Source: Blastocystis sp. Blastoise
Lineage: Eukaryota; Protista; Bigyra: Opalinata
NCBI GenBank assembly: GCA_039096225.1
Contig: JBBPEB010000024.1
Location: 248,001 to 312,000, forward strand
Direction of reading: 5' to 3'
DNA length: 64,000 nt
In this document: positions 15,193-63,292 of the stretch, in pieces
How the letters are laid out: each line of letters starts with the position of its first letter
Numbering within the stretch: position 1 is the first letter of the stretch
Program-made: the position numbers and the translations under genes
The notes under the pieces: generated by a model
Told to the model about the DNA's origin: nothing
Databases searched by the model: none
What the model saw: only the letters and a program-made list of their open reading frames with translations

Positions 15193-15268
15193 TTATTTTA
15201 ACTTTTATTATTTCATAATTAATTATTTGTTTTGTTATATAATTATTTTTAAATTAATACAATAAATA

Positions 15269-16066
15269 ATGCAAAGTAATTTAGGAGATAGTGTAACTCT
15301 CTATGATATTTTATCAAGAAATCAGAAAAAACAATCTTGGGATCCATGGTTACCCAATTCATATATTTGTCAAGATGAACAACCTGTACAACCATTAGCA
15401 CATGATCCTAATGCACAAGGATCTATGTATAGTTCAATGGCAGTTCAAGCATTAAGAAATCATGGTCAATCACCTGAAGATATGTTTATAGCTACTATGA
15501 ATTCAGCTAAAGCTAATGGTGATACAAATAGATATACATCCATGTTATCTCAATGGCAAACGAATTATGGTATTCCTACTACAAGTAAGATATGGTATGA
15601 TGCTAGTAATCCTAATAACTATCAATATGAAAAACTTATTCACACTGTAAGAAATCCTAATGAAGACTATACAGTGAAACCACAACCAGAATCCATGAAT
15701 TCTAATTTCACTGAAGAACAACCCAAACCAGAACCTGAAAAGAAACCTGAACACGAAAAGAAACCAGCTAAAGAACCTGAAACTAAACCTGAAACTGAAA
15801 AGAAACCATCTAAAGAAGATGATAATACTCCAAAGAAATTTGAATTCGATATGAATTTACAACAAGATACCGACGAAAAAACATATTATAACGCCACTTA
15901 TGGAAAGTATAAATTCAAATGGTATACTGATGGATCTATTGAATGCACCAATAGTGAAGATTTCGGAAATAATAATATATTCTACAAAAATAAAACATTA
16001 TTTGTTGAAACTGATGATAAATCAATGGATATTGACGATTATTTAAAAAATACTCATAATAATTAA
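15269..16066 (+). CDS. PLV hypothetical protein with KPE repeats
   Basis: 265-aa ATG ORF in the co-oriented cluster. Confidence 0.75.
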   Translation: MQSNLGDSVTLYDILSRNQKKQSWDPWLPNSYICQDEQPVQPLAHDPNAQGSMYSSMAVQALRNHGQSPEDMFIATMNSAKANGDTNRYTSMLSQWQTNYGIPTTSKIWYDASNPNNYQYEKLIHTVRNPNEDYTVKPQPESMNSNFTEEQPKPEPEKKPEHEKKPAKEPETKPETEKKPSKEDDNTPKKFEFDMNLQQDTDEKTYYNATYGKYKFKWYTDGSIECTNSEDFGNNNIFYKNKTLFVETDDKSMDIDDYLKNTHNN

Positions 16067-16154
16067 TGATACTATTAATATACTAACTATATAATATAAA
16101 TAATTTCTTTTTTTTGTTTTGTTTTAAAATTCATAATTATTTTATTAAACTAAA

Positions 16155-17928: not shown

Positions 17929-18828
17929 TTCTAGAAGTTTCGAGAATGTTCTAGAATGTTCTAGAAAATTGATATACATCCCGCCACCTAAAATCACTGG
18001 AACACAATTAGTTTCCCCAGTTTCCCCAATATAATTGTGTTTTTGTGTTCCAAAATCCCTCATTTTTACATTTTTAAGCAATTTGATTGGACAATTCACG
18101 ATGACGCATCCTATTTCCATAACGGTTACCCTTGTTTCCAAAAGTCTCTCGTTATAATCGTGGTGGTGGGTACATCTTTTTACAAGACCACACCACCACC
18201 AGCTTTTCTTTCACCCACTATAAATACATACCTTGATCACTTTACTCTTTTTTATAAATTTTTTTATGATTATCATGACTTTTTATATTATTTATTGATC
18301 ACTATACATACATTTTTATTTTTATATATTCCCGTGATTATTCTTATTATTTCTTTTTAGATAGAACCATCCATTTCATCTTTTCTCTATATAAAGGGAG
18401 GGTCGGGGTGTGTGTTTATTTAGCACATTCTGTGCTTCTTTTCGTATTTCTTTCTGTATTCCCGTGATTATTTTACTCACTTTACCAACGATGGAGTCAT
18501 TTTCCATGAATATTCCCTGTAAAGGGGAGGGTGTGAGTGTGTATTTTATTTCTTTTATGATTACTATGAGTTTCTCCTTGATCACTTTACGTTTCACGTT
18601 GGAATCGGAACACAAATAAATTAAAAATAAATAAACATGGGAAAAAATAAATACACACACACACTACCCTACACTCCCATGGTTATTTTACTTCAGAAAT
18701 GTTATTAATTCTTCCGTCGAGAACAAAAAGGGGGGATGTCTTCCCCGCTTATGGCTGCGCGCGTCGCGCAGACTCTATGCGGGGTTTGCATACCCCCTTC
18801 TGCAGTTCGAAGAACGGAAGAATTAATA
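17929..18828. repeat. PLV terminal repeat (~900 bp): HSE array at the inner end (17929-17966), GC-rich hairpin at the outer end (18703-18828)
   Basis: Near-identical to 51113-52012. Copy 2 is inverted, so the match implies inverted termini in the full element. Confidence 0.85.
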
Positions 18829-19338: not shown

Positions 19339-20778
19339 TAATATTAATGTTATCTTGGAATAGATCTATTAATCATTCTAATTTAACAAGATTAGATGCA
19401 TTCACTTTATTCTTTCCTAATATAGAAAAGAACGCTATAGATTCATTATTACGTAAGATAAGGAGTAATTATAGACAAATAAATAGAGATACTAATATTC
19501 CTACTTTAGGTAATAGAAATAATAATCGTATTCCAAATAATCAAAGATTAAGAAATAATCAAATACAAAATGGTTATATTAATATTAATAATAATAATAA
19601 TAATAATAATATTGATATTAATATAAATAACTCTGATATTAATTCTAATAATAATAATAATAATAATTCCAATAATAATGAATCAAATGAAATGGAAATA
19701 GATAATGAAATAAATAATTCTAATAATACTAATATTATTAATAATATTTCTAATTCTAATAATATTAATTCTACTTCTTCTAATTCTAATAATAATAATT
19801 CTAATAATAATAATAATAATAATAATAATCATAATAATATATCTTCTCAATCTTCACTAGATTCTGATATTGATATAGATATGAATTTAAATAATTCTAA
19901 TTCTAATAATTCTAATTCTAATAATTCTAATTATAATAATAATAGAAGAAATAATAATAATAGAAATAATACAAGACCTTCTAATATTCCTACTTTACAA
20001 ACTAGAATAAATCATAATCCTAGAACAGTTCAAGGTAGAAGAACAAGAGAATTAGAATTAAATAATAATAATAATAATATGAATAATGATAATGAAATGG
20101 AAATAGAAAATGAAGAAGAAAGAAATAATAATATTAGAAATACTAATGATAATAATAATAATCCTAATAATAATAATACAGAAATAGATTTAATATCAAC
20201 TTATTCAGAAAATAATATTAATAATATTATTAATAGATCAAATAATCTTCATTATACTTCAAATGTGAAAAGAAGATTATCTAGATTAGCTTTAAAGCGT
20301 TGGTCTAATAATAAAACAATAAATCGATTTAATAGATTTGTAGAAGAGAGATTATATGATCATATTCGATGTTATCCTATAGAAGATTCAAATCATAATC
20401 CTACTATGACTCCTGAATTAATAGAATCATTTAATAAGAGTTGTGAATATGTATTTAATGAAATATATAGATGGATATCACAATGTGATAGAGGAAGAAT
20501 AAATCATAATGATAGATATAATAATAATAATAGAGATGTAGGTAGTTCTGCTAATGAAGATCGTAATTATCATAATGAAACTAGAAATAGAAATCATCAT
20601 TTTCATGATAATAATAGATTTAATAATAATAATAATAATAGAAGATATATTAGTAGATATAATAATAATAGAAACACTAGATATAATAATAATAATAATC
20701 ATAGAAATCAAAGAAGATATAATAATAATAATAGAAATACTAGAAGATATAATAATAATAATAATAATAATAGAAATC

Positions 20779-20820
<42 letters not shown>

Positions 20821-23800
20821 GAAATACTAGAAATTTAAATACAAATAGAAATGAAAGAAGAATGAATAATGAAATGGAAATTGAAATTGAATCTGAGAAT
20901 ACTAATAATACTAATACTAATTCTAATCAAATTAATTCTTCTAATTCTAATACTTCTAATAATGATACTCAATCAGAAAGAGAATCTAATATTAATAATT
21001 CTAATAATAATCGTTCTAATACTCATTCTAATACTCATTCTAATAATAATACTCATAATAATAATAGATATAATAGAAATAGAAATAATAATACTACAAG
21101 AAATAATAATAATAATAGATTTAATTATAATATAAATGATGAGAATGAATTGAATGAAGAATTAATAAATTCAGAAATTCAATATTATAAGAAAGTATCT
21201 AAACTTCTTAATGAATGTATTCAATCTATTAATACATTTACTTCTCAAATATCTATGAATAATAATAATTCTATTTCTATTCAATCTTCTATAAATATAT
21301 TTATAGGTAAATTAGTAGAAATATATGAAATGAATACAGAAGAACCTATATTAGGTACAATATTAGAAAATCTAAATATATCAAATATTAATGAATCTAT
21401 TAATATAATGAATATAGATTTATGGAATGATAGTAAGAATTCATTAAATCATTTTAATGATAATTCAAAAAGAATGATTGAAGATTTATTAAAGAATAAA
21501 GAAAATATAAAGAATCATAGAGAAGCATCTAAAATAAGAAAAGACTTTGAAAATAATTCTAAATCTACTCTTCGTTCTCAAATATGGAATAATAATACTG
21601 GAGAACATTGTACTATTCCTCCTGATACTCTTACTCAATTATATTCTGAGTTATATTCCTCTCATGAATCTAATACTAATTCTAATTCTACTTCTCCTCC
21701 TCTATGGTTATCTACTAATATTTCTACTATACCTGAAAATTCGTCTTCTTTCAATATTATTAAATTTAAAGATGTTACTAGAATTCTAAGGAAACTTCCT
21801 AATAATAGTACTCCTGGTGCTAATGGAATTCCTTATGAAATCTATAAAAGAAGTACTTCTGCTAGATTATTATTAACTTATATCTTAGAAGTATGTAGAT
21901 ATAATGAAATTACTTTAAATAGTTGGAATGAATCTATTACTTGGTTATTAGATAAAGGAAAAGATGATAAATCTTCTTTAAATAATTGGAGACCATTATG
22001 TCTTCAAAATGTAGAATCAAAAATATTTTCTTCTCTTATAGTAGATTATATTAATAACATTAATAATTCTTATCATATTATATCTTCTTATCAAAAAGGA
22101 TTTACTCCTAGTGTAGCTGGTTGTGAAGATCTTAATTATATTCTTAGTAATATCATAGCTGATTTTAAATTAAAAAGACTAAGAAATTCTAATTTATTAA
22201 TTAATTTCTTAGATTTAGAAAAAACTTATGATACTGTTCCTCATAAGATATTATTAAATATTCTTCATATGATGAATTTTCCTAATAATATTATTAATAT
22301 AATAAAGAGTTGGTATGATAATGCTTCTACTAAAATTAGATATGATAATCATCAATATACTTCTTCTATTCATCTTCATAGAGGTATTCGTCAAGGTGAT
22401 CCTCTTTCTCCTCTATTATTTAATATTATTATAGATCCTCTTCTTAAATATATTAATAATAATAATAATATGAAAGTACAAATAAAAGATAATGATACTA
22501 TAATATTAGAATCAAATGCATATGCTTATGCTGATGATATAGTATTATTATCAAATTGTACTAATGATAATAATATTTTATTAGAAAGAGTAGGTGAAGT
22601 ATTAGATTATTATTCTATGAAATTGAGTGTTTCAAAATGTAAATGTATGGGAATGAAGATGAGTGATGATAGAAATAGAAAATTAGAATATACTATTACT
22701 CCTCCTATTTATAAGAATGAATCAATTCCTATAATGAATGAAGAAGAAACTGTAAGATATCTTGGTTGTCCTATTTCTTATATATATACAAAAAGAAGAG
22801 AATTTTGGGTAGATAATATAAAGAAAGTAAGTGAACGATTATCTTGTTTAAATAATAGTTTATTAACTCCTTGTCAAAAAATTAATGTAGTAAAACAATA
22901 TATCTTACCTTGTTTAGAATTCTTATTTAGAAATGGTGATATGAATAAGAATGATATTACTCTTATTGATACTACTATAAAACAATATATAATGAATTGG
23001 TTAGGAACTGGTACTAATCTACCTTCTCACTTCTTTAGTACTCCTATTAATAATGGTGGTTTAGGTATTATGCAATTAATTGATAGATATTATATAGGAA
23101 AGATATCTTTAATTGCTAGAATGGCTGTTTCTGATGATCCTCAAATTAGAAATATTCTTCAATATACTATTAATAAATCTTCATTAACTAATGATTTATT
23201 CATGATACCTAATCCTATTGATTACTTAGATAATAATAATGATAATAATAATAATATTCCTGAAAATCATAAGAATGATTTATTATTCTTTCAATGGTTA
23301 ATTAATGATAATCATAAAATAGTAAAAGGAAGAATAGAAAATGGTAATATAATAATACATGATACTCCTTATGAATCATTAACAAATTTCTTTCCTTATC
23401 TTCGTAAAGCTGTAGATGCTGCTTATAAACTTGGTGTTAATATAGCTTATATAGATCCTAATGATATATCTCTAGGTATTAAAATAAAATTAATAGATAA
23501 AGATATTCCTGAATTAAATACTACTATTCCTTATGAGAAAGTAAGAAGAACGATATGTAAAGAAATTAATAATTTATTGAAGAAGAAACATTCAAAACAA
23601 TTATTAAATAATTATGAGAATACTTATTATTATAAATATTTAGATAATAATATAGAAAGTAATAGATGGTTATTTAATGGTAAGAGATGTCATCCTATGA
23701 AATATTCTGCTTTAATTAATATAAGAATGAGAACAGCATTTACTGGTTCTCAATCTTTCTTATATAATAAGAAGAGATCTCCTAAGATTAATGATACTGA

Positions 23801-24468
23801 AGCTCTTTGTCCTTATTGTTTAGAACATAATAAGAGAGCTATTCATAATTTGAATCATATTCTTACTACATGTGATAGAATTACAGATAATAATGGAATA
23901 GGTGGATTAATTACAAATAGACATAATCAAATATTAAATAATTTATATAAGAAATTAATAAGAAAATATAAATTAGGAGAATATAGAATAAGTATAGATA
24001 AATCATTATCAACTTCCTTTGGTAATGATATATTCAATAGAAATATGAATAATCTTCGTCCTGATATAGTAATTATTCCTACAAATCCAAATAACAAAGA
24101 TATAATAATAGCAGATGTAGGTATAGCATATGAAGGATCTTCTAATCAAATAGATCCTCTTCAAACAATGAAACAGAAGAAAGATCATGATTATGATAAT
24201 GTAATAGAAATATTGAATAATAATGGTTATAGAGTGAGTAATTATTCTTTAATCTTTGGTTCTTCTGGAGTTATTCCTAAAGATACTTTAAATAATCTTA
24301 GAAAGATATTAGATATTTCTAAGAAGAATGTATCTTATTATGCTTCTATATTAAATAATATTATCTTAGATTGGTCATATAAATTCTGGTTAAAATCTCT
24401 TCCTGATAGTCATACTATTTCTACTCATTTAAGAGATTCTAATAATAATAATAATAATAATAATATTA

Positions 24469-24528
<60 letters not shown>

Positions 24529-24965
24529 TATCTCAATAATTTAAATTAATATGTCATATTAATTTATCTTTTATTGATATTTTATTCATTTACTTTCTTT
24601 TATTTTTAATTCTTTTCTACTATTCATTCTATATTATTTTAATACTTCATATTTCTATATATACTCAAAATCAATCATTTTCTTCTTATTTCTTCATTAT
24701 ATTCTTCTATTATCAATTCTATTCAAATATCTACGATTTATATGTAATTATCTTTATGTTAAATGAAGTCTTCAATTTTACTAGATTTTATATATATACC
24801 TTACATATAGTATTAATTATTAATTTTATTCAAAATTTTATGATTGTGTCCCAAAACACAATTAATAGTTGATATTATATTTATATATATATAATCAATT
24901 GAAATTTTTAAATTTCGAACTCTAATGGAATCAGGAAATCAATTTATGTTTTGGAATATATATAT
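19339..24965 (+). mobile_element. RLE-clade (R2/R4/NeSL-like) non-LTR retrotransposon, probably 5'-truncated; 3' boundary approximate
   Basis: Domain order of the ORF; ORF begins 9 bp after the MITE end, leaving no 5' UTR. Confidence 0.75.
19347..24539 (+). CDS. Single-ORF non-LTR retrotransposon protein (RT + zinc knuckle + restriction-like endonuclease), Asn-rich N-terminus
   Basis: NWRPLCL, FLDLEKTYD, GIRQGDPLSPLLF, YADD, YLG, GGLG; CPYC...H...C; RHN; RPD...D...K. Confidence 0.95.
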
Positions 24966-28728: not shown

Positions 28729-31700
28729 TTAATTATTTAGAGTAGACCTGAAGACCACGTTCTTAGTAAATATTTCATTACTACTACTAATCATCTTACC
28801 TTGAGAAACACTATCAACTACCTTAATAAAAAGAGAGTTGAAAGATCGGGCACGACTAAAAGCAACATAGAGTTGACCATGAGAGAAGACAGGACGATCT
28901 AAATAAACACCAACTCTTTCAAATGTTTGTCCTTGAGATTTGTTGATAGTCATTGCGAACGCTAAACGAATAGGAAATTGTCTTCTGGATATAATAATAG
29001 GAAGATCTTCAGGATTTGAATTACAGATAATTCTTGGAATAATAACAGTACGTTCATCAATAGTAAGAGAAGGAGGAGGATTTAAAATAGTAGCAGTAAT
29101 ATTATTTGATCCTAATCGAGTAACTATAAGTCTAGTACCATTACATAATCCTTTAGAAGGATTAAGATTTCTTAAAAGCATAATGATACAACCTATTTTT
29201 AAATTTAATATATGAGGAGGCATTCCAGAAGGTGTTTGAGAATTAATAAACTCGATAGGATAATTTGATTCTGGATCATCTGTTTCAGAATCAAGAATAG
29301 AATCAGAAGAGATATAAGGAGTAGTAGTTCCAGAAAGAAGATTATCTACAATGAAATCATTTAAAGTACCAACACAATCATTAGTAGAAGCTAATATAAC
29401 AGAAGAAGCTAATCGTTTAATATCAGAATCAAGAGAAGTATTGATTCTATGTCCAAATACAGTAACACATAAATCATCATTTACAATACATTGAGGAGGA
29501 ATAGGAATATAATCTATATCTAAATGATGACTAATAGTATAATTATTAGAAAGAACACCATCTCCTACTTGTAATAACCATTGTCTAAAATCATCTGCTC
29601 CTTCTAAAGCTCTCATATTTCTTGATAAATGAATGACATTATTCTTTATCGAATTCCATAAGGAACAAAACTTTATAGAAGAACTAACAATCTGAGCTTG
29701 AGTTCCTTTTCTTATAACTGGTAAACATTGTCTGAAATCTCCTCCTAATACTACTGTTTTACCACCAAAAGGAATATCTAATTCTGTATTCATTATATCA
29801 CATAATAATCTATGTACTACCATAAAGCAATCACCTTTCATCATAGGAGCTTCATCCCATATTATTAAATCAGCTATTCTTATTTCTTCTACTTTTCTTC
29901 TATCTCTAGCTAAATCTATATTTGAAGTAGAATCAGGATCAACATTCAAAGGAATACCAAATTGTTTATGAGCTGTTCTACCACCTGGTAATAAAGTAGA
30001 AGCAATTCCTGTTGAAGCTACAGGTAATACATTCTTATTATGTCCACGTAAATAACTTAATAAACTATTATATAAGAAAGTCTTTCCACTTCCACCTGGA
30101 CCATCTATAAAGAAACATAACTTATCTTCTATTCTACTACTTTCTATTGAATGAATTACTCTATCAAATGCATTTCTTTGTTCTTCATTTAATAATTCTA
30201 TTACTCTATTAGCTTCTTGTAATTCTAAAGTAGGATTATAATTATAATCATTATAATGATGTTGTTCTTCTACTTGAGGTAATCCTAAATCATTATAATT
30301 CACTCCTATACTTATCATCATCTCTTTTATATCTTGTAAAGTACGTATTTCATAATCTTGAAGAACACTATTAGTATCATCTTCTATAACACTTGATGAA
30401 TCTAAATCTTGAGCTAAAGGAGTATTTATATAATCTATTTCATTATTATGCATTGAATGTTTATAATCTTCACTAAGAAATGATTTAAATCGAATCCAAA
30501 ACTCTTTTACATTTGTTAATAATGATTCTGAAATATAAGTAATAAATAATTGTCTCAATTGACATGGAGTAGCAAAAACAATAGCTTCTGAAAATGAATC
30601 AAATACTTCTCTCTCATTATTCAATAATCCTCTTGCTATAGCTGCTTCACTAAAGGTTCTATAAGGTTCATTACGATTCAATCCTTTTACTATCTTCAAA
30701 GAATCAAAGCTATCAGCTCCTTTCGTATTCAATAATAATAATCTCAAAGCATATCGTTCTTTATCTTTTGGATTCACATAATACATTCTTCCTAAAGCTT
30801 TTATATCTCTCTGACGTCTATTCCAAGTATTTGTATTCGATTTCCATACATAATATTTTGGTATTTCATGATAAGCATAAATAGGATATTTCTCATCTAA
30901 TATTTTCAATAATTCTTCTGATATATTATCATCATCTACTTCATAACTATTTATTCTATTTATCTCTTCTAAACGAACTTGAATCAATTCTCTTTCTTCT
31001 TCTACATTATTCATATTACGAATACCATGCTTCTTCTCTATATAATAATAAGTATATATCTTTCTTTGATTCTGAACTTCTTTCTCTAAATCAAAGTATT
31101 TTGTTAATTTAGTACCTTTCTCTAAACTATTTCTTAATGCTTCTTCTTCGTGTCCTTCTCGAAATAATATATATGGATCATCAGGTAAATGAATAGGTAA
31201 TCTATTAATAGAAACAGAATTATAAGTAATTTCAAAACAATTCAAACGATAAGAAGCTTCAGGAGGAGAAACATATCGACAATCTAAATAAGCTTGAGTT
31301 TCATCTACTATTCCATTATCATTCACTCTTCTTAATTGAGCTATCACAGAATCATTTCCTTTTAATGCATATTTATATATATATTTAGTACTTTGAATAT
31401 TACAACAGACTTCTACATTAATATGAGCTTGATATTTCAATAATAAATAAGGATTATAAGGAACTACCCAACGATTATCAATAGTATAAGTATTATGACT
31501 ACGAATAAGAGTAATAGTTCTATCAGGAATATTTCTTCTTTGATATAAAGGATAAGAATTTAAATGACAATTAGTTTGCTCTATATATTCTTTTGGAAAT
31601 CTCTTACTACATTTACCTGTTGATCTATCAATACAAACACAATTCGTATCATAATCAGGACCACATGGACCATGAATCATATGTTTCTTAACTAATTCAT

Positions 31701-33735
31701 AAAGAAGAGGAGTTGATTCTTTATCGGGAATCTCTGCACTTATTATACTATCTACTTCATCTTCTGTTCTATATTTAGAATTCGTATCTAAAATAATTAA
31801 TATATGAGAATGTGGTAAACCTCTCTTTTGGAATTCTACTGAATATAATAAAGCTTCTACAGTACCAAATATATTCTTATCCTTTATATCAGAAAGCAAT
31901 TGTTTCAACTTTAAATGAAACACTCTTGAAACTAAATCTGGAAATTCATTAACAGTATAACCTTCTGGAATATTATTCTTTATTTCTAACCAATCTGGAT
32001 TGCAAGTAAATGTAATAAATAAATCAGGTTTACCATATTCTCGAACTACACTCATAGCATCCATATATTTCTGTTGTAAATTTCTTGGACTACCAACAAA
32101 AGAAGAAGGTAATATAATAGCTTTACCTATTCTATCTATATTTCTATCATTCTCATTTATTTGATCTCCTCTCTCTTCTAACATATTATTTATATTCTGA
32201 TAAGTTGAAGCTCTTAACTTATTTTGATTATTTCGTATATAATTAATTCTATTTTGTTCAACTCGGATATAATTATCAGTAATATATTGTAAAGTTAATT
32301 TCTTATATTTTAATAAATAATTATCATAAGGTGGATTTTTCATTTGAAGCATATAATTATAATATTCTAACATAGTAATAGTAATTTGATTAGAACGATT
32401 CAATGATAATAAATCTGGATACCAACCTTGTCTTCCAGTTGGAAACATAACTGGATAAACCATACAATCTATATATGAATTAGTATTCTTCATTACTATA
32501 TATTGACCTGAAGTATAACGATTCTGTTCATTATTACTATTAGTAGCTACTATTTCCATACCACTTCTAGGAAAACAACAATAACTTCTTTCTGGCATTA
32601 CTCCTCCTTCTCTATATTGATATATTACTGCTACTTCATCTACTTGAGGAGTATTATATCTTCTTATATCAGGTACTTCTCTTCTTTGTTTCTTAAATTC
32701 TATTAATAAATTAATATTACTTCTATTCATTTGACTATTCTCTTCTATTACTTCATCTACTCTTTCTCGAAGTGAATTATATATTTGAGCTAATGGATGA
32801 TATTCTCTTATTGTACTATCTAATATCTCTAAAATATTTGGTTTTAAATCACAAAAATATCGATTCATACTTCTCATATGAGTAGCTTCATCTCCATCTA
32901 TCATATAATATTGATTGAATACAGGATGTCTTGTAGGATCATTCACATCAAAATCTAAAGCACTCTTAAAAGTATGATATATATTACCTCCACATTTAAA
33001 TAATAAAGGTCCAGAAGAATTTCTTAAATCATCATCAGAAGTATTATTTCCAGCTAAAGAAGCTAAAGCAACAGAATTATTATATCGAATTATATTATTA
33101 ATAAATTCTCTTGAATCTGGATTATCTCTTCTTAATAAAGAACGAATAGTATTAGGAAGATCAGGAAGTTCAGGAAGAACTACTTTACCACTACCACAGC
33201 AAGTATAAAACTTATCATTCATTCCTTTCTCTAATTCAAAATGTTTAGCATGACAATATTCACAATGAACATTAAAATCACCTAAATAATTAGCTTTATA
33301 AGTATTCAATGCTTCATTTAATACAAAATCACCATGAGAATCTATATAAAATAATATAAAATAAATATTTATATATATAAATACTTCTTTGAATAGAAGC
33401 AATACAATTATGTAATCCAGGATATAATAATCTTTGTTGATTATCTATAAAAATAATTTATTATTTAATTATTTATAAAGAATTATAAAAAATAAATAGC
33501 ATACAAATATCTAAAGCTCTTCTTCTTCCTCTATTAATAATAGGATGAATAATTATATCTTCTTCAACTATAAATAAAATTTAATAAATATATTTAAATA
33601 ATAAAAAAACATACTATTATCTGTTATAGGTCTTCTAATAGTTCTTACAACTGGTATTTCATCATTATTTTGAGTATTACTATTAATATTAGGAAAAGGA
33701 TCAATATAATCAGAATCAGAATCATTATCAGAAAA

Positions 33736-44460: not shown

Positions 44461-44518
44461 CTTATAAATAATGAAAATAAATATGGTATAAAATTCAAAA
44501 CAAATAATATATTAAAGA

Positions 44519-44667
44519 TTCTAGAAGTCAGTTTTAGAAGCTTCTAGAACCTTCTAGAACCTTCTAGAACATTCAGGAACATTCTATAATAGTAAATATT
44601 ACTTTATATTTTTAAATGTTCTAGAACCTTCGAGAACCTTCGAGAACCTTCTAGAACCTTCTAGAAC
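44519..44667. promoter_or_regulatory. HSE-like arrays (copy of 1171-1320)
   Basis: TTCnnGAA arrays; visible differences from copy 1 within the arrays fall in n positions. Confidence 0.75.
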
Positions 44668-44776
44668 ATCCTTTTTATACTTTAGTGTTTTAAATGTATA
44701 TACAATAAACAAAACAATTTTCAATGATTTTTTACAAGTTTATAAGTAAAAATAGAAAAATAAACAAGAAAAATAA

Positions 44777-45400
44777 TTAAATTTCAATTGGTTCTTGACT
44801 ATTAATATATGTACATGAATGAGGCCATCCATTTTTATCATATAAAATACCATCCCAGAAATACATTTGTTTTGAAGGATCTCTTTTAATCTTGTTAATA
44901 CTCTTAGCATGAACAACTTCATAAGTATAAACTTTACCTTTTTCATCATAAAGAAATCCATCTTCCATATGGAATTTCATAATATCAAAATCATCATCTT
45001 TAGAATTCGAATGTTCTTTAGAATCTTCAGAACATAAAATAGTAGTTCTATCACTTTCTAAAAGATCTTCAGTATTGATAATATCTTGAATATCTTGTTC
45101 TTCATTAAGTTGTTGAGTATAAATATCAGCAGCGAATTCTTCATAATCTTCAAGACCTTTAATAACCGCGTTTATACGTTTTAAAGCTGATCTATAGTTT
45201 TCGACTTCGAAAGAAGCAAGACGTTCTTTAGATTTTGCAATACCCAATAGATTCTTTTCTCTATTCAATTGAGACTGATGTAAATCAATATCACGAAGAA
45301 CATTCTTATGAACTTCAACAGCCTTCTTAGAATTCTTAAGAAGTTCCATACGAACAGTTTGAAGACATTTACGGGAATCAGCAGAAAGATTAAATTGCAT
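44777..45400 (-). CDS. PLV hypothetical coiled-coil protein (copy of 438-1061)
   Basis: Near-identical translation. Confidence 0.8.
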   Translation of the reverse strand: MQFNLSADSRKCLQTVRMELLKNSKKAVEVHKNVLRDIDLHQSQLNREKNLLGIAKSKERLASFEVENYRSALKRINAVIKGLEDYEEFAADIYTQQLNEEQDIQDIINTEDLLESDRTTILCSEDSKEHSNSKDDDFDIMKFHMEDGFLYDEKGKVYTYEVVHAKSINKIKRDPSKQMYFWDGILYDKNGWPHSCTYINSQEPIEI

Positions 45401-45798
45401 TATAATCGCGAATATCGTTACAGAGAGAAAATTTGTATTTATCAAAATGAAATAAATAATACATTTAAATGGAATATTAAATATTCTAGGAGACAGTGTA
45501 GAATCTCTATGGAATGTTCTAGAAGGTTCATTTGATTGGCTAATTTTATCGACTTAGCATTTTTTATTTGTGTTTCAATGACGAGTATAGTTGGCATCTG
45601 TAATTTGATTGGATAAAAAAATTAGTAAAACACAATTAGACGATGACGACGATGTGTCATACGAAATAAGTTATTTTATTGGCTTATTTTCCAGCTGGAA
45701 GCAATAGGCTTTTGTTAGCAACTGAAATGAAGAACTGTACACTAAAAATAGTATATTTAATATATTGTATAAAAATACTTTTGAAGGTTTAAATAATC

Positions 45799-46326
45799 AT
45801 GGAAATTCCTGATAGTCTTTCTGCCAGTTTATCCCCTTTCGGTCAAGCCATGATATCCCCCTTGTTGAATCCATTTGAAAATAGTGTTTCTGCAAATCCT
45901 ATGGCTTTACCCAATGATAATGATTTCTGTTTTAATTCGCGTGACGAAATCATGTTTGAAGATCCACCTCAAGAAATTCATCCAATCAATGATGTTTACG
46001 TATCTAAAAATCCAGATAGATATCATTCGGTTAACAATCAACCAATACAATTTCAAGATCAAGTAAATACAAATCCTGATAAGAAAGCATTATTATTTAC
46101 AAATGAGGAGTTAACAAATATATCCAGTCAATTCGAATCTTTATTTCAAACTATTGAAACAGCTGATAATATATTAAATGGTATTTATTGTACTGTTGAT
46201 CATTTAAAAACAAAGATTGAAAGTCAGAAACAAGATTTGAAACAGATTCATGATGATTCTAAAGAAATTGTTTCATTATTATCCGAATATTCTATTCCTT
46301 CTATGTCTGAAATATTTGATCATTAA
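45799..46326 (+). CDS. PLV hypothetical protein, C-terminal coiled coil
   Basis: 175-aa ATG ORF; start conserved in copy 1. Confidence 0.8.
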   Translation: MEIPDSLSASLSPFGQAMISPLLNPFENSVSANPMALPNDNDFCFNSRDEIMFEDPPQEIHPINDVYVSKNPDRYHSVNNQPIQFQDQVNTNPDKKALLFTNEELTNISSQFESLFQTIETADNILNGIYCTVDHLKTKIESQKQDLKQIHDDSKEIVSLLSEYSIPSMSEIFDH

Positions 46327-46413
46327 TTATTTTTATTTAATTAATTATTTTGTTTTGTTTATTTTTTAAATTAATTACACAAAGTTTAAATGGAGAATAG
46401 AATAGTTTCAAAT

Positions 46414-46521
46414 AGAATTCTTGAATGGTCTAATGGATCTATTAAAGAAATATGTAACCACAGTATCATGGTTCGATTCCGTTAAAATGTTTCCATTAGA
46501 TTATTCAAGTGTTCTTTTTTT
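46414..46521 (+). ncRNA. Candidate RNA polymerase III small RNA (~105 nt; VA/vault-RNA-like architecture)
   Basis: A-box TGGTCTAATGG (46426-46436), B-box GGTTCGATTCC (46470-46480), T7 terminator (46515-46521); the 5' and 3' 24 nt pair at 23/24 positions. Confidence 0.7.
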
Positions 46522-46567
46522 CTAGAACCTTCTAGAACCTTCTAGAACCTTCTCGAACATTCTGGAA
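46520..46567. promoter_or_regulatory. HSE-like array (10 units) upstream of the SSB-like gene
   Basis: TTCtaGAAccTTCtaGAAccTTCtaGAAccTTCtcGAAcaTTCtgGAA. Confidence 0.75.
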
Positions 46568-46644
46568 AATTGATTCATTTGAAAAGAATATCGTAATATA
46601 TTAGTATTAAAATACTTATATTTTTACTAAATACTTAACTAAAA

Positions 46645-47238
46645 ATGTCTACAACTGAATTTAAAAAACCTACTATTCTTGATACTTCTAACTTTAATTT
46701 ACAATGGGATGACACCAAAGAAAATGCTGTTCTTTTAAATAATAATCATCGTGTATGTATTTCTACTGATGCTACACCATGTTTATTTGGTTATATTGTT
46801 ACACGTGATAAATGGACTTTATTAACAATTGAAGATGATAATCAAGTATTCTTAACTGCTTATAAAGAACTTTATCGTAAATTATGTGAATTATGTCCTG
46901 ATGGTGATATTGTTAATTTTGTACGTATGGATAATGGTAAGTATAAGATTACAATTAAAGTACCTATTAATGCATCGAAGAATGTTACTATTGATATTAC
47001 TGATAAAAGAGATAAGAAGATTAATATCGGTAAAGATCCTAAGTTAACTTACGAAGAAATACGTGAAAAGTATATTCCACCAAATACGTTATGTAAAGTA
47101 TTATTTACAATACATGGTATTCATCGTTATAATAACAAGTATTATATTGGTTTATATGCTCGTTCTATTAAAGTCATCGATAAATCTACGAAGAATACTA
47201 ATAGTAATGATACTATTATTGATTTAACTAATTTATAA
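46645..47238 (+). CDS. Putative OB-fold single-stranded DNA-binding protein
   Basis: C-terminal IPPNTLCKVLFTIHGIHRYNNKYYIGLYARSIKV resembles the viral (T7 gp2.5/NCLDV-like) SSB pattern; function inferred. Confidence 0.55.
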   Translation: MSTTEFKKPTILDTSNFNLQWDDTKENAVLLNNNHRVCISTDATPCLFGYIVTRDKWTLLTIEDDNQVFLTAYKELYRKLCELCPDGDIVNFVRMDNGKYKITIKVPINASKNVTIDITDKRDKKINIGKDPKLTYEEIREKYIPPNTLCKVLFTIHGIHRYNNKYYIGLYARSIKVIDKSTKNTNSNDTIIDLTNL

Positions 47239-47313
47239 ATTTTTAATGTTAAATTTATTTTTTATTAATATATTTGTTTTGTTTATAAATAATTTTATAA
47301 TTGAAATAAAAAA

Positions 47314-48942
47314 ATGCAAAGTTGTATATTAGGAATGCCAAGTCCTGGTACTTTTGGTATGAATTTAATTTCAACTGGAAAAGAATATAGGCGATATAAT
47401 ACACAACCATTACATAAAATGGATCAATATAATCCAATATTTCATGAAATAGGTCCAAATTCATCTATGCCTGTGTCTACTTTAGAAAGTAAAGAAATAC
47501 ATGATGGTAAAGAAGATGATTATGTAGATCGCTCTAAAACATTTGGTAAAGATGCTGTTCCACAAGGAAATGGTGCTTTAATTCGTGCTAGAGCAGCAGG
47601 TAAAGGTGTAATGAAAGCAGCTGGTCCAGAAGAAGATAAAATAGATGGTGAAGATCGTCAATATAAAGTATTAAATCCATGTAAACCAAGACGTAAATCT
47701 GGTAGAGGAATTATTCCAAATAAATCAGAAATCAATAAATTAGAGAATAATCAAGGTTCTGGTATTGGTGATGCAATTAAAAATAAAGTAAAAAATATGT
47801 ATCAACGAAATGTATTAGATATAAGAGATGCTATTGTAGATAAAAAAGCTAATAGAAAAGCTCGTGATGCATTAGCTATTTTAGCTCAATATGTTGGTGA
47901 CGGTCATCATGATCTTGATGATGAATTCAAAAGATTCTATGAACATAAAATAAAACGTGGTGGAAAAATTCCTATATCTGTTGCTTCAGCAATTATGAAT
48001 GCAATTAAAAATAAGAAAATGATTAAGAATCCAAAATTAAGAAGAATGTTAAGACCTTCAATTATACCAAAATATATAGATTTAGATTCAGCTCAAAGTG
48101 GTGATGGTATATTAAGAGTAAAAAGAGGTGGTGGATTCTGGAGCGGATTAATGGATTATGCACCAGCTCTATTAGGTGTAGTTGATAAAGGTATGGATTC
48201 TTTTGCTAAAGGTAGAAAAGCTTATTATGATACACATTTGGCACAACAATCAAGTGAATTAAATGATATGGAATTTGAAATGGAAAAATTAAAACGTCAA
48301 CAAGCATTAAATGAAATGAAAAAGCAAATAGGTTCAGGAAATACAATAAATAAAATGTTTGAAGGATATTATGATGTAGCTGATGAAATGCAAGATGCTC
48401 TTGATGAAGATGATAGACTACATCCACAACCCGTTGTTCAACCTCCACCACCTCCACAACAACAAGTTGATCGACCTCCTCAATCTCAACCTCCTCAACC
48501 TTATAAACCCATGTCTCGTGATGAACAAAGTTATTATTATAAGATTTATGGTTTCCCTCAAAATGATAAAGAAAAAGTCGATAGAAAATGGAAAGAAGAT
48601 GAAAGGGATAAACGAATAGCTGCAAGAAGAGCTAAACGTAGAGGTTATGGTGGTCGAGTTAAATTAAGTAAAGAAGAATTCTTAGAACGAATGAGAAGAG
48701 GAAAAGAAGCTAAAAAGAAAAGAGGTGGTGATTTGAATCCATTAGTATCATTTTATACAGATTTTATAATACCTGCAGGAGTGGCACGAAAAAAACGTAA
48801 AATACAAGAGGCTGATTTAAAACAATTACAAATTATAAAACAGAAAAGAGATAATAATGAAACATTAAATGCAGGTGACGAATTGTTTTGGAAAAAAAAG
48901 AAATATATGTTATCAAAAAACTCAGGGGAGGGGATCTGGTAA
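47314..48942 (+). CDS. Basic, GG/GxG-motif-rich protein; candidate core protein precursor
   Basis: QGNGAL, SGRGII, QGSGIG, KRGGK, SGDGIL, KRGGGFW, KRGGDL, SGEGIW; adjacent to the protease. Confidence 0.75.
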   Translation: MQSCILGMPSPGTFGMNLISTGKEYRRYNTQPLHKMDQYNPIFHEIGPNSSMPVSTLESKEIHDGKEDDYVDRSKTFGKDAVPQGNGALIRARAAGKGVMKAAGPEEDKIDGEDRQYKVLNPCKPRRKSGRGIIPNKSEINKLENNQGSGIGDAIKNKVKNMYQRNVLDIRDAIVDKKANRKARDALAILAQYVGDGHHDLDDEFKRFYEHKIKRGGKIPISVASAIMNAIKNKKMIKNPKLRRMLRPSIIPKYIDLDSAQSGDGILRVKRGGGFWSGLMDYAPALLGVVDKGMDSFAKGRKAYYDTHLAQQSSELNDMEFEMEKLKRQQALNEMKKQIGSGNTINKMFEGYYDVADEMQDALDEDDRLHPQPVVQPPPPPQQQVDRPPQSQPPQPYKPMSRDEQSYYYKIYGFPQNDKEKVDRKWKEDERDKRIAARRAKRRGYGGRVKLSKEEFLERMRRGKEAKKKRGGDLNPLVSFYTDFIIPAGVARKKRKIQEADLKQLQIIKQKRDNNETLNAGDELFWKKKKYMLSKNSGEGIW

Positions 48943-49508
48943 AGAGTAAAGATGAGAAATTAATTCAAAATTCAATGAATTGCGATAATCCTATTATATC
49001 TGATAAAACTCGTCATGTTACTCCTAGATCCCCTGATAATTTCAAACAAACTCTATCTCAATATTGTAATATACCCAATTCTTTAATATCTCAATTATAT
49101 AATTATGCTTATTTAAATAAACCTACCTCTTCTGTTGCTTGTGATCGTGCTGAAAATGTTATGAAACAATTAAATAAAACGAATTCTCAATCTTATAATT
49201 ATTATAATAGTTATGATGATTTTGAACAAAATATAGATCAAGATCAAACTAAATTTAATATGATCTTTCATGAAAGTCCTAGTGATCCTTATAATGGTCA
49301 TTTTGAAGCTGTTATTTATAATGGTAATAAAAACATAGAACACTATTCATCATTAGGAAATGAACCTACTTTTTCAAAATCATTTATTCAAAATCATAAT
49401 ATTCAATATAATCCTATTCAACACCAAAAAACTACAAGTAATGCAAATGGTTGCTTTTATTATTCTTTACTTTATTTACTTTCTAATGGAAATCTTATGC
49501 CTTGTTAA
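48888..49508 (+). CDS. Adenain-like cysteine maturation protease (divergent); start uncertain (ATG 48975 or frameshift fusion)
   Basis: NGHFEAV...EHYSSLG...QHQKTTSNANGCFYYSLLYL matches the H...(D/E)SxG...Q...C layout, but the acidic residue is atypical. Confidence 0.65.
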   Translation: MEKKEIYVIKKLRGGDLVKSKDEKLIQNSMNCDNPIISDKTRHVTPRSPDNFKQTLSQYCNIPNSLISQLYNYAYLNKPTSSVACDRAENVMKQLNKTNSQSYNYYNSYDDFEQNIDQDQTKFNMIFHESPSDPYNGHFEAVIYNGNKNIEHYSSLGNEPTFSKSFIQNHNIQYNPIQHQKTTSNANGCFYYSLLYLLSNGNLMPC

Positions 49509-49512
49509 AACC

Positions 49513-49535
49513 TTCTAGAATATTCTAGAACATTC
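49513..49535. promoter_or_regulatory. HSE-like array (5 units) upstream of the 124-aa ORF
   Basis: TTCtaGAAtaTTCtaGAAcaTTC. Confidence 0.65.
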
Positions 49536-49630
49536 ATTTTGAACTGGCTCTATTTGTAGAATCTTTAATTTATTATATTAGTGTTTTATATAATTAATTT
49601 GTTTTGTTTAATCATTGGTTAATTTAAATA

Positions 49631-50005
49631 ATGAACAAGAAATATCTTAGTTATTCTTATTTTTGTCGTGTGATGAAGAATCTAAAAGAAGAAGGAATTA
49701 AATCCAAAAAGAATGAAATAGCGAATCTATTAGAACAATTTTTAAATAATAATAACAACAAGAATCTTAGTGATTTGCAATTGAGTTACTGTAGAAACAT
49801 GTTACTTTATATAGATGATCCTGTGATTCATCAACGTCTTGAAATGCTATTGGATAAACAATATATGAAGAATGAGAATCAATATCAAGAGGATAAGAAT
49901 CTTATTCAACCAAATAATATGTTTATGCCAACTATGAAAAGTAATCAACAACAAAATCAATATCAAAATAATAATAATAATCTATCTTTCTTACCTTTTA
50001 ATTAA
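49631..50005 (+). CDS. PLV hypothetical protein (124 aa)
   Basis: ATG ORF behind an HSE array. Confidence 0.65.
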   Translation: MNKKYLSYSYFCRVMKNLKEEGIKSKKNEIANLLEQFLNNNNNKNLSDLQLSYCRNMLLYIDDPVIHQRLEMLLDKQYMKNENQYQEDKNLIQPNNMFMPTMKSNQQQNQYQNNNNNLSFLPFN

Positions 50006-50078
50006 TTTTTATATCCTTTTATTACTAGTTGTTTAGTTATATTCAAAATTAAAACAAAACAAACATAAAAACATAAAA

Positions 50079-51014
50079 TTATTCAATTAATTTTTTAAAT
50101 AAATTATTATTTTCTAAAGATACATAAGAATTAATATGTGTATAATCATTATGACATAAAGCAGAAGCAGAATTTTCTATATCTTGAAATGTATTGGTTG
50201 TAGTTGTAGCATATAATTTTCTTAATGCATTAATGGTCAATTTTGGATGGATTTGTTTTAAATGCTTATTCACAAACCAATCAAATGCTTTAGTAGTAAA
50301 TCCAGTTCGTACAGAAGATTCAAATATAAATTTACGATTTGGATTTCTTTTTAAGAGTAATTCTAGATCTTCAATCAATTCTTTTGGTGCATCTAATTGA
50401 ATTGTAGAGTATTTACCAGCAGTTTTATAATCATTTAATAGAATAGAACCAGTATGTTTCTCTTTATCATAAACAATATAATTCTTATGAATAGCTGGAT
50501 CAATAGTATCTTCTGGTGATAGAATGAATAATTGAGCATAATCAGCACGAGCAGGAGGAAGATAGGAGTAAAAATCTAATATTAATCGTAATGGATTATA
50601 ATTTTCTAATTTATCGTGATATTCATGTAAATATGGAGTCGTAATACCATCTTTAATAAGATCTTGAATTAAAGTACGTTTCTTATTATCCAGATATTTT
50701 TCATACATTGAATTGATAATCACATAAAATTCACACCATTTATTCAAAATACCTTCTTTATTTAATGAAGAAACATTACGTATAATAAATAAAATCAATT
50801 CACATAACGATTTCATTGGACTAATTTTGATTTTACGTTCATTTACCATATAATCCATGAATGAATAAGGATTCTTTAAGAATTCTGAGAACTTTTTAAA
50901 TGGTAATGGGAAAATATATAAATTGAAATAATTAGTTAAACGTTTTTTCCAAATATCAGAATAATTTGAATTCTGTATAACCAAAAGATACTTGTCATAA
51001 TTTGTATTTTTCAT
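50079..51014 (-). CDS. Tyrosine recombinase-family protein 2
   Basis: LPPARADY(R)...NDYKT(K)...FIF...NALRKLYAT(R)...LCHNDYTHINSY(H,Y); first ATG at 51014. Confidence 0.8.
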   Translation of the reverse strand: MKNTNYDKYLLVIQNSNYSDIWKKRLTNYFNLYIFPLPFKKFSEFLKNPYSFMDYMVNERKIKISPMKSLCELILFIIRNVSSLNKEGILNKWCEFYVIINSMYEKYLDNKKRTLIQDLIKDGITTPYLHEYHDKLENYNPLRLILDFYSYLPPARADYAQLFILSPEDTIDPAIHKNYIVYDKEKHTGSILLNDYKTAGKYSTIQLDAPKELIEDLELLLKRNPNRKFIFESSVRTGFTTKAFDWFVNKHLKQIHPKLTINALRKLYATTTTNTFQDIENSASALCHNDYTHINSYVSLENNNLFKKLIE

Positions 51015-51102
51015 TGATTTTCTCAAGTAGAATCTCTAAAACTTCTATTTTCAAAAGAATAATACATAAGAAAATCAAAATAAAATATCTAAGATTCTCA
51101 TG

Positions 51103-52012
51103 TTCTAGAATGTTCTAGAAGTTTCGAGAATGTTCTAGAATATTCTAGAAAATTGATATACATCCCGCCACCTAAAACCACTGGAACACAATTAGTTTCC
51201 CCAGTTTCCCTATTATAATTGTGTTTTTGTGTTCCAAAATCCCTCATTTTTACATTTTTAAGCAATTTGATTGGACAATTCACGATGACGCATCCTATTT
51301 CCATAACGGTCACCCTTGTTTCCAAAAGTCTCTCGTTATAATCGTGGTGGTGGGTACATCTTTTTACAAGACCACACCACCACCAGCTTTTCTTTCACCC
51401 ACTATAAATACATACCTTGATCACTTTACTCTTTTTTATATAAATTTTTTATGATTATCATGACTTTTTATATTATTTATTGATCACTATACATACATTT
51501 TTATTTTTATATATTCCCGTGATTATTTTTATTATTTCTTTTTAGATAGAACCATCCATTTCATCTTTTCTCTATATAAAGGGAGGGTCGGGGTGTGTGT
51601 TTATTTAGCACATTCTGTGCTTCTTTTCGTATTTCTTTCTGTATTCCCGTGATTATTTTACTCACTTTACCAACGATGGAGTCATTTCCTATGAATATTC
51701 CCTGTAAAGGGGAGGGTGTGAGTGTGTATTTTATTTCTTTTATGATTACTATGAGTTTCTCCTTGATCACTTTACGTTTCACGTTGGAATCGGAACACAA
51801 ATAAATTAAAAATAAATAAACATGGGAAAAAATAAATACACACACACACTACCCTACACTCCCATGGTTATTTTACTTCAGAAATGTTATTAATTCTTCC
51901 GTCGAGAACAAAAAGGGGGATGACTTCCCCGCTTATGGCTGCGCGCGTTGCGCAGACTCTATGCGGGGTTTGCATACCCCCTTCTGCAGTTCGAAGAACG
52001 GAAGAATTATTA
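51103..52012. repeat. PLV terminal repeat, copy 2, with a 10-unit HSE array (51103-51150) and terminal hairpin (51888-52012)
   Basis: Near-identical to 17929-18828. Confidence 0.85.
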
Positions 52013-52583: not shown

Positions 52584-53873
52584 ATGAGTCAAACTGATGA
52601 TTTACAGCAGGGCGAAAATGGTGTTATAAGTCAAAACTTAAATGAATATCATGATTCACTTAGTCATGTCCTGGAAACACCTCATAGATCAAGAGGCAGA
52701 CCAAGAAAGGATCAAGAATGGCAAAATCAACCAAGAAGAAAGTATTCAAAAAATACTATTCCAGATAGTGTGAAATTAGATTTCGAAAGATTGTTTGCAT
52801 TACATGGGTTTAAAAGAACTGCCAAAGACTATGCTTTGATGTTTCCAATCACCGAAGATTGTGCGAAACGGTTTATTAGATCCATTGTTAATGGCAAAAA
52901 GCTTGTTACTGAGAAGAAAAAAACTGGTCCTAAGGTTTTAATAACAAAAAATATGTCAACAAGAATAAAAAACATGTTTTTTATCAACCCAAAGTTCCGC
53001 ATCAAAGATGTTGTTCTTGTATTGTCAAATCCCAACTTTTCAGAAGCTGATATACTAAGTGACGACTCGTATGATGTATCAGAGGATAAAAGAAAAGCAA
53101 TGATTGAAGAAGTAGACAGACTTCGACAAGATCCGACAATTACTCCTATATGTAGCCGTTCAACAATTTTAGAAACATATGCATAGTCAGTTAATGTCCG
53201 AGCATATTGGAAAAACATTCTCCGTTACAAAGCTGTATCCCAGAGGAAAAGCATCAAATAGTGATCAAAACAAAAATCTTAGAATCACTGTGTTTCAAGA
53301 AGTATTTAGAACAAAACAACATTGAACGTGTATGGTTTATTTAGACGAAGTTCATTGGGGTTTTAATAACTATTCTCAAAAAGAATGGGGTTTCAAAAAT
53401 CAAAAGATTTATTATTACATGACTTCTAAACGTCTTCCTGTGACTGCTATTGCTACTATATCTTCAAATGGTAACGGCTACGCTGAAATCTTTGGGTGTT
53501 CAGTTAATGGAAATCTATTTTTAGAGTTTTTCGAGAAATGCATAAAAGAATACAAAAAAATGAAAGTGATTTGTGTTTCTACATGGACAATGCACCAATT
53601 CATACCGATGTAATTCTTGAAATTGCCAATAGATATAATGTCAAAGTTATTTTTGGTCCACCCTACACACCTGAAATGAATCCTATAGAACATATCTTTT
53701 ATTTTTGGAAACGTCGAGTTGAAGAAAGTATAGTCTCATGGATAGATCTTGATAATTTCTGTGAAAAACTTGAACAAGTCTGGAAAAATCTATCTAAGAA
53801 CGAAATTAGAAGTTGCATTGAGCACACAAATACTGTAACATTTTCAAGAGTTATGAGAAAAGAAGATTTATAA
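52584..53873 (+). pseudogene. IS630/Tc1-type DDE transposase pseudogene
   Basis: VYLDE, MDNAPIH, PPYTPEMNPIE (D-33-E) split over three ORFs by a stop and frameshifts; AT-hook RGRPRK. Confidence 0.9.
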
Positions 53874-62008: not shown

Positions 62009-62809
62009 AAGGATATAAAATAAACAGCATTAAAAATATCTTTTGTTTTTAATATATCAACATCATTTCCATTTCCATAATATCTATATATATATATATA
62101 AAGTATTATATACACATATATAAAATAAATAGATATACTAATGGATAGAAATATGAATATATATATAAATATAATAGATAAATACATATTGGTAGATATA
62201 TATGAACATATATTTGATATTATTTAATAAATAATAAAAAAAGAAATATTAATATGTATAAAAAATAAGAATTATATATATATATATATATATATATACT
62301 GATCAATAGCATTTGTATCAGTCGATCCCCAACCAATATCAGTACTTACATCTCCGGGTTGAATAACAGTAACACGAATATTATATTTTTTCAATTCTCT
62401 TCTTAAACCTATTGATAATCCCTCAACAAAATATTTTGATGCACAATAAACAGTTAAACAATCAAAATGCTATATATATAAACATATTTTTTTAAATTTT
62501 TAGGTACAATAAAACAATAAATACATATAAATAAATATCTAAAATAAAAAATGTATATAATAATAATAGCAATAATCATTGACAAGGGATACATTAATAT
62601 AAATAATATATATTAAAGCTAATATATAACAGAAGATATATTTTAATAATATAAAAAAATATACATAAAAAAATATATACGCAAAAAAAAATATACATAT
62701 ATATATACTCTTTTACCTGCATCGCTAGAAATATTAACAATATGACCAAAATTTTGTTTTTTCATAATTTCTACGCATGCACCAACTCCATTTAATACTC
62801 CCTATAATC

Positions 62810-62842
<33 letters not shown>

Positions 62843-63292
62843 AATAGACATATCATCATAAAAATAATGTAAAAAACAAAAAGCAAAAAGAATAATAATA
62901 ATACTAACAAAATTAGAATAGAAATAGCAAATGTATTCATCATATACTTTACAGTTAACATCGACGATCGTGTTCCACTCATCTTCATGAACATTTTCCA
63001 TCAATGTAATTGGCATAACACCAGCATTATTAATCCAAATATCTATTCGGCCGAATTTCTCAAATACTTTATTAGCAAATTCTTTAAGTTGTTCACGTTT
63101 TGTTACATCAGCTACTTGATAGTATACCTCACATCCTAAAGCTTCTATTTTATGACCAAGATCAACAATATCACCTTCTTTTCTTGAACAAATACCAATC
63201 TTATAATTCTTCTTAGCAAATCCTAAAGCTAATCCAGCACCAATACCACGAGAGGCACCTGTTATACATACAACTTTCTCAGTTTCACTCAT
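61851..63292 (-). CDS. Host short-chain dehydrogenase/reductase; exons 63292-62948, 62801-62709, 62469-62300, 62082-62017, 61919-61851
   Basis: ITGASRGIG, NNAG, NISS, YCASK, QPG; three GT-AG introns and one AT-AC intron give a continuous SDR. Confidence 0.92.
61920..62016 (-). other. U12-type (minor spliceosome) AT-AC intron, 97 nt
   Basis: 5' ATATCCTT, branch-like TTCTTTAAT close to a 3' AC; removal restores NAVYF|AVTQP. Confidence 0.85.

Follow-up and report, generated by a model that had tools for sequence, protein, structure and literature searches.

A 64,000-nucleotide (nt) stretch of the Blastocystis sp. Blastoise genome (contig JBBPEB010000024.1, forward strand, positions 248,001 to 312,000), which we call the window and number from its first letter, carries parts of an element that we file, with a caveat given below, as an endogenous Polinton-like virus. 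Within one partial copy of that virus lie two overlapping genes: an open reading frame (ORF) for a basic, core-like protein and, in the -1 frame relative to it, an ORF with the predicted fold of a CE-clan cysteine protease. How the protease is made is the subject here, and the layout of the overlap points to programmed -1 ribosomal frameshifting, as an earlier note on this DNA had proposed. The site at which ribosomes would slip, however, is probably not the one that the note had named. Coordinates are collected in Table 1.

Table 1. Features of the core-protease locus, in window coordinates (aa, amino acids)
Feature	Position	Strand	Remark
TGTTTTGTT motif	47275-47283	+	closes the preceding gene
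Core-like protein ORF	47314-48942	+	542 aa; 0 frame, at 1 mod 3
Protease frame (-1)	48879-49508	+	open from 48879; first ATG at 48975; CE-clan (Ulp1/adenain-like) fold
A_AAA_AAG, heptamer of the earlier note	48894-48900	+	at most a minor site
A_AAA_AAC, likely slippery heptamer	48915-48921	+	0-frame codons Lys535 and Asn536
LRGG, -1 frame	48921-48932	+	predicted self-cleavage site; release would yield a 191-aa protease
Spacer	48922-48928	+	7 nt, between A_AAA_AAC and the stem
Predicted stimulatory stem-loop	48929-49034	+	106 nt; -33.8 kcal/mol; starts 7 nt past A_AAA_AAC
Stop codon TAA of the core ORF, 0 frame	48940-48942	+	0 frame ends SGEGIW
TGTTTTGTT motif	49600-49608	+	past the protease; first such motif 3' of the core ORF
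Partial virus copy carrying the locus	44461-52009	.	from self-BLAST

The core-like protein has a mass of 62 kDa and an isoelectric point of 9.6, consists of 19% lysine plus arginine, and contains several GG motifs, which also occur once each in both capsid-like proteins, the primase and the ATPase of the element. Composition and position together suggest a core protein. It has no family match in Pfam or PHROGs and no usable match in the Atlas, and its ORF is 82 to 97% identical to hypothetical proteins of Blastocystis sp. at NCBI. A second core-like gene in the window (16155-17639) has its N-terminal 64 residues in common with it (33%, E = 1e-5), is followed by the 3' motif described below, and has no protease behind it.

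The protease is recognized by structure. AlphaFold, given an alignment of six sequences, produced a model (predicted local distance difference test [pLDDT], 70) that matched 6ups (Z 9.9, root mean square deviation 3.0, 120 aligned) and adenovirus protease 4wx4 (Z 6.9, root mean square deviation 3.5, 119 aligned). Rows 1 to 29 of the fold search are by title nearly all Ulp1-, SENP-, adenain- or YopJ-type proteins, which we take to be members of the CE clan, and row 30 drops to Z 4.6. Judged by this modeled fold, the downstream ORF is a CE-clan protease. Scans of Pfam and PHROGs gave it no family, and a sequence search of the PDB returned a single irrelevant match (E = 0.62). A profile search returned nine proteins, of which three distant ones (P0063 to P0065) carry Peptidase_C5/C48. 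His109, Gln151 and Cys160 are invariant in all eight aligned sequences, and protease activity is likely from that alignment. Ser125 occupies the column in which P0061, P0063 and P0064 have Asp, and the usual catalytic acidic residue thus appears to be Ser. The whole family has Ser at that column (window positions 49347-49352), a two-residue insertion before the Cys (49446-49454), and Phe or Leu, not Gly, after it.

Much of the frame layout in the earlier note was read correctly. Core codons begin at positions 1 mod 3 and protease codons at 0 mod 3, such that the protease is indeed in the -1 frame; an in-phase A_AAA_AAG lies at the position given, within an A8 run (48892-48899); and the peptides quoted, KKLRGGDL in the -1 frame and SGEGIW at the end of the 0 frame, are both as written. 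The -1 frame was said to open exactly at that heptamer, but it opens five codons earlier, behind a TGA at 48876. A second heptamer, A_AAA_AAC, was missed. A_AAA_AAC is the slip site of mouse mammary tumor virus and human T-cell leukemia virus (HTLV).

Heptamers alone mean little here, as they are common: there are 30 in phase in the 19 viral ORFs of the window (two copies of one gene included; spans 438-17639 and 44777-51014). At only two of the 30 is the -1 frame open for at least 50 codons, namely, A_AAA_AAG (202 open codons) and A_AAA_AAC (195 open codons). When all 30 were ranked by the predicted fold downstream, A_AAA_AAC came first at -33.8 kcal/mol, with the next best at -24.4 kcal/mol, and A_AAA_AAG had a fold of -14.1 kcal/mol (z +0.6) with no stable structure at a distance of 5 to 9 nt. 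Eukaryotic slippery heptamers shun a final G, and their spacer is usually 5 to 9 nt (PMC7618472). A_AAA_AAC fits the pattern X_XXY_YYZ, in which Y is A or U and Z is not G, and A_AAA_AAG fails on the last position. Moreover, A_AAA_AAC is among the most shift-prone heptamers with mammalian ribosomes, whereas A_AAA_AAG is of the Escherichia coli type (PMC5009743).

The earlier note had seen no strong stimulatory hairpin, and this does not hold: the predicted stem-loop has a z score of -3.16, and none of 200 dinucleotide shuffles was equally stable. It begins 28 nt past A_AAA_AAG, versus 7 nt past A_AAA_AAC. Its basal helix is 11 bp (48929-48939 with 49024-49034), above which come a 4-nt bulge containing the 0-frame stop, two 6-bp helices, and an inner hairpin containing ATG 48975; pair probabilities in the three outer helices are 0.84 to 1.0. 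Synonymous-codon resampling reached -33.8 kcal/mol in 0 of 1,000 cases in either of two controls (means, -17.5 and -20.7 kcal/mol), including the one in which dual-coded codons were held fixed. The arms are built with codons that are rare in the virus (AGG, 0.02; GGG, 0.03; CTG, 0.02; TCC, 0.07). Among 2,348 plus-strand 110-nt windows of the viral regions the stem ranks ninth, and the top eight start in two intergenic stretches. A comparison with Rfam gave five weak matches, all well under gathering scores.

The break between the frames is shared by the whole core family. Close homologs of the core-like protein fall into four clusters and, counting the protein of the window itself, comprise 21 distinct sequences from contigs of 13 different sizes under one shared assembly label. 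All 21 end in YMLSKNSGEGIW at the same stop, and the single-ORF form that the earlier note had held up against its own reading did not occur in this family. Upstream of the stop, 12 of the proteins read WKKKKY and 9 read WKEKKY, a replacement that probably breaks A_AAA_AAG and the A8 run. A one-off indel in A8 is excluded, because the stop is identical in the KKKK and KEKK types alike. The two types belong to two tail haplotypes with different residues at 18 of 57 positions, after which come 14 residues invariant in all 21 proteins (rough P = 0.005). That invariant tail begins right after the K/E position and covers A_AAA_AAC, the spacer and the 5' arm of the stem.

More-distant relatives encode the same two domains in one frame. 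In-frame core-protease ORFs occur in three clusters, P0007 (617 aa), P0058/P0068, and P0060/P0070/P0071 (533 aa); P0007 is an ENA cluster of 30, and 6 of the 15 members listed are 617 aa long. The core ORF aligns with the N-terminal part of fused P0007 (E = 5e-32) and P0060 (E = 1e-19), and P0007 follows the window in the 0 frame to 48807 and in the -1 frame from 48945. In six relatives, tblastn matches begin at 48930 to 48945, upstream of ATG 48975, and from there on the overlapping -1 ORF is matched as a conserved protein. P0059 and P0072 have another residue in place of the Met of ATG 48975 and P0060 lacks it too, and the stand-alone proteins P0001 and P0002 (60% identity) start 13 residues before that Met and are conserved there. 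Because the residues upstream are conserved and the Met is lost in some relatives, coding constraint in the -1 frame extends upstream of ATG 48975. A tree built from 10 protease domains, with 2 rows as outgroup, had open forks and placed P0060 on a long branch, and its topology did not indicate whether the fused or the split form is ancestral. Database matches of 114 to 366 aa included no annotated protein for the window family's protease, and a -1 frameshift would account for that gap in the annotation.

We note that the host label of the window family covers at least two further virus families. One is that of the fully fused P0060, P0070 and P0071, and the other is a sister family whose gene models (P0059, P0066, P0069 and P0072) join core and protease at three different points. 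These junctions seem to be predicted introns that span the frame break, and the models retain PRSP, residues encoded here by the 3' arm of the stem. From its sequences, the sister family is a candidate for a second frameshift.

The 3' ends of the genes suggest that core and protease share a transcript. The motif TGTTTTGTT lies 17 to 91 nt past the stop in 16 of the 19 viral ORFs, and two more have it with one mismatch (at 24 and 84 nt). Of the 19, only the core ORF goes without, which bears out the earlier remark that no such motif separates it from the protease as it does the neighbors. A partial TGTTTTG at 48884 was considered as a poly(A) signal for the core gene and rejected, as it has two mismatches to the 9-mer and lies 58 nt before the stop. 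TGTTTTGTT appears to serve as a 3' signal, and it resembles what we take to be the sequence of the Blastocystis downstream gene element. That element directs 3' cleavage in human-associated Blastocystis and is not enriched in AT-rich isolates from tortoises (PMC10690189), and the virus may retain a 3'-end signal that tortoise-type host genes do not show. If TGTTTTGTT is such a signal, its lack after the core ORF would place core and protease on one transcript, and the motif past the protease is likely the common 3' end of a single core-protease mRNA.

We consider it quite likely, on this sequence evidence, that the protease is produced by programmed -1 ribosomal frameshifting at A_AAA_AAC, as a switch of ratio like that of gag-pro. 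The earlier gag-pro-like reading is strengthened by the break in 21 of 21 copies, the relatives fused in frame, and the well-placed stem. On the likely shared mRNA, most ribosomes would terminate at 48940 and yield the core-like protein. A minority, paused by the stem, would slip back one base on the heptamer and yield a 731-aa core-protease fusion of about 84 kDa, with 536 residues from the 0 frame and 195 from the -1 frame. By analogy with Gag-Pro, particles would take up the protease through the core part as they assemble, in a small and fixed amount. The protease would then be freed at LRGG, the first four -1 residues, presumably by self-cleavage; the site fits the adenain consensus (M/L/I)xGG, and xGG is found at the same position in P0059 and P0068. 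Stem-loop stimulators frequently cause 5 to 10% of ribosomes to shift (PMC7618472).

Several points weigh against frameshifting at A_AAA_AAC. Closure of the stem takes about 105 nt, and the first 100 nt alone fold to only -14.9 kcal/mol. Alignments to relatives fail to separate A_AAA_AAC from A_AAA_AAG. The 21 copies share recent ancestry as well as an assembly label and are not independent organisms, and their invariant tail may also reflect recombination between copies. Searches of viral_contigs, metagenome_contigs and genome_contigs gave no match to the DNA of relatives; the other copies are known as proteins, and conservation of heptamer and stem at the DNA level is suggested by protein sequence. 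Finally, the apparent Ser in place of the catalytic acidic residue makes the activity of the protease less than certain.

Alternatively, the protease could be made independently from ATG 48975, either from a transcript of its own or by ribosomes that re-initiate past the core stop, and we regard this as improbable. The Met is kept in four of the seven relatives examined (P0001, P0002, P0007 and P0068), which counts against the frameshift and favors an own start; gene calls of 177 aa stand alone in clusters 1 and 2, and the 177-aa ORF contains the whole catalytic fold. The Met is nevertheless missing from P0059, P0072 and P0060, and residues upstream of its position are conserved. The 40 nt before the ATG are 75% AT, compared to 85 to 97% in 15 of 18 other ORFs (72 to 75% in three), the gap of 32 nt is the shortest among the neighbors, an out-of-frame ATG at 48952 precedes, and the start lies in the inner hairpin, behind the stem. 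Nor would an own start explain the geometry of heptamer, spacer and stem. Frameshifting mainly at A_AAA_AAG, as first suggested, is somewhat less probable still. That heptamer is in phase, opens onto a long -1 frame, and is compatible with KKKK in 12 of 21 copies, but it ends in the G avoided in eukaryotes (PMC7618472), is the E. coli-type sequence (PMC5009743), and has no stable structure at the proper distance. KEKK in the other nine copies further argues that it is probably the wrong site, although a shifted A run is possible at the DNA level.

Other rivals would join the frames before translation. A small intron could do so in part of the mRNA: within 48700-49010, eight GT-AG pairs spanning up to 150 nt would leave an open joined frame (for example, 48875-48900, 48875-48930 and 48885-48925), a further point against frameshifting. 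The sister-family models join core and protease by apparent introns. Splicing here is nonetheless very unlikely. The three host introns of one gene in the window, a small sample with a fourth candidate unclear, have the form GTATAT...TAG and are 146 to 239 nt long and 86 to 90% AT, whereas the candidate pairs use other donors and AAG, GAG or CAG acceptors; the sister models use three different junctions and extend into the following gene as well, apparently through prediction error, and all 21 models of the window's core family end at the unspliced stop. We give equally little credence to a homopolymer error of assembly, or a dead mutation amplified within the family, in a gene that is truly one ORF like P0007. 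Relatives are fused in frame, the overlap contains A8, A6 and G4 runs, and a miscall could be systematic in 21 copies under one assembly label. The same stop is found, however, in copies with and without KKKK, nothing interrupts the protease frame, and a nonrandom stem sits at canonical spacing; long ORFs elsewhere in the window are intact (1,000, 1,497 and 1,730 aa), and gene calls from Logan/ENA contigs of up to 24 kb likewise give the protease as a short ORF of its own. Assemblies of sequencing runs gave 58 contigs on 46400-50100 from one of three runs and none from the other two; contig depth in the bin 48880-49003 was 0.1, and no piece among those listed bridged the junction. Least probable of all, to the point of being almost negligible, is slippage of RNA polymerase on A8. 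One extra base there would open the protease frame in some transcripts, but 9 of the 21 copies probably have a broken A8, and the stem would go unexplained.

The window itself is about 24% GC. Self-BLAST resolves two partial copies of the gene-dense element, which run in opposite directions: 1-1377 corresponds, inverted, to 44461-45837 (98%), and 17929-18825 corresponds to 51113-52009 (98.6%), a terminal-type repeat of about 900 bp. The copy at 44461 breaks off 10 bases before the expected start of the primase gene. The other copy encodes a primase-like protein (1388-4390; phrog_1156, E = 2e-9), a P-loop ATPase (13064-14101; phrog_2666, E = 1e-10), and two adjoining paralogous capsid candidates (9373-10845 and 11016-12239; 28% identity, E = 8e-40). 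The second of these matches Atlas clusters at 0.96 to 0.97 that are 100% or 95% viral, one of which has PF21738, a double jelly-roll family, in 10% of its members, and a single-sequence model of it reached a pLDDT of only 32. The ORF at 50079-51014 has a weak match to Phage_integrase, a tyrosine recombinase family (E = 0.084), and the window does not hold both ends of any one copy. Neither pPolB nor an RVE integrase was found among the viral ORFs scanned, which come from partial copies. By its gene content the element is filed as an endogenous Polinton-like virus (Preplasmiviricota), with the capsid and recombinase matches as a caveat. Blastocystis MELD viruses are described as having PolB and an rve-type integrase (PMC8502044).

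Very stable hairpins are predicted in intergenic DNA of the element at 1150-1320 and 46400-46530, near short TTCTAGAACC-type repeats. The DNA that separates and flanks the virus copies contains an ORF for a reverse transcriptase of the long interspersed nuclear element type (19347-24539), a Helitron Rep-helicase ORF (28729-33222) and a split DDE_3 transposase (52584-53873). A host gene on the minus strand (62084-62947), short-chain dehydrogenase-like as labeled by eye, contains the three GTATAT...TAG introns (146, 239 and 216 nt).

Frameshifting by -1 belongs to a textbook class of mechanism and is characteristic of RNA viruses, retroelements and the tail genes of phages. A search of the open-access literature found no frameshift between a core-like protein and an adenain-type protease in a Polinton-like virus. 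The closest item there for Polinton-type viruses was a set of software predictions for the penton and the hexon-adenain of adintoviruses (PMC11071296), and the word "frameshift" is absent from the available parts of PMC11161782 and 10.1101/2024.03.23.586382. If our reading is true, the locus would be a clear case of -1 frameshifting in a eukaryotic double-stranded DNA (dsDNA) virus and would hint at how the dose of protease is set, and the enzyme packaged, in such viruses. Natural pairs of fused and shifted forms would allow a study of how frameshifting takes the place of a polyprotein, and the signal is compact and suited to a direct reporter assay.

It is likely, we think, that a Polinton-like dsDNA lineage in Blastocystis reinvented the gag-pro design, with fused and frameshift-throttled states within one host genome. 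As in retroviral gag-pro of human immunodeficiency virus type 1 and HTLV-1 (PMC7618472), a structural precursor lies in the 0 frame and a maturation protease in the -1 frame, with an X_XXY_YYZ heptamer, a spacer of 5 to 9 nt, a downstream stem-loop and a minority fusion product, the last predicted here. Unlike the retroviral case, the genome is that of a dsDNA virus and not an RNA retroelement, the protease is a CE-clan cysteine enzyme and not an aspartic one, and the stimulator is a bulged, multihelix stem predicted by computation. Closer by virus group are the -1 shifts proposed for adintovirus Penton and Hexon-Adenain ("Hexain"), likewise by prediction only; in the latter, a -1 slip would append an adenain-type protease to a virion protein (PMC11071296). 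There, however, it is the major capsid protein that would be joined and the basis is KnotInFrame prediction, whereas here the partner is basic and core-like, and a conserved stop, relatives fused in frame and the pattern of 3' motifs accompany the signal. The protease shares with vUlp1 of Polintons and Polinton-like viruses (PMC11161782) the CE-clan fold, conserved His, Gln and Cys, and a setting in an integrated element alongside primase-helicase, ATPase, capsid-like and recombinase-like genes. There vUlp1 is drawn as a stand-alone gene; here the protease is encoded, in or out of frame, as the C-terminal portion of a core-like polyprotein and has Ser for the usual Asp and a two-residue insertion before the Cys. 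Among dsDNA viruses, phage lambda offers a parallel in its G-T tail chaperone, in which a -1 shift sets the ratio of two assembly proteins (PMC5009743), although the ribosome there is prokaryotic and the product is a chaperone instead of a protease.

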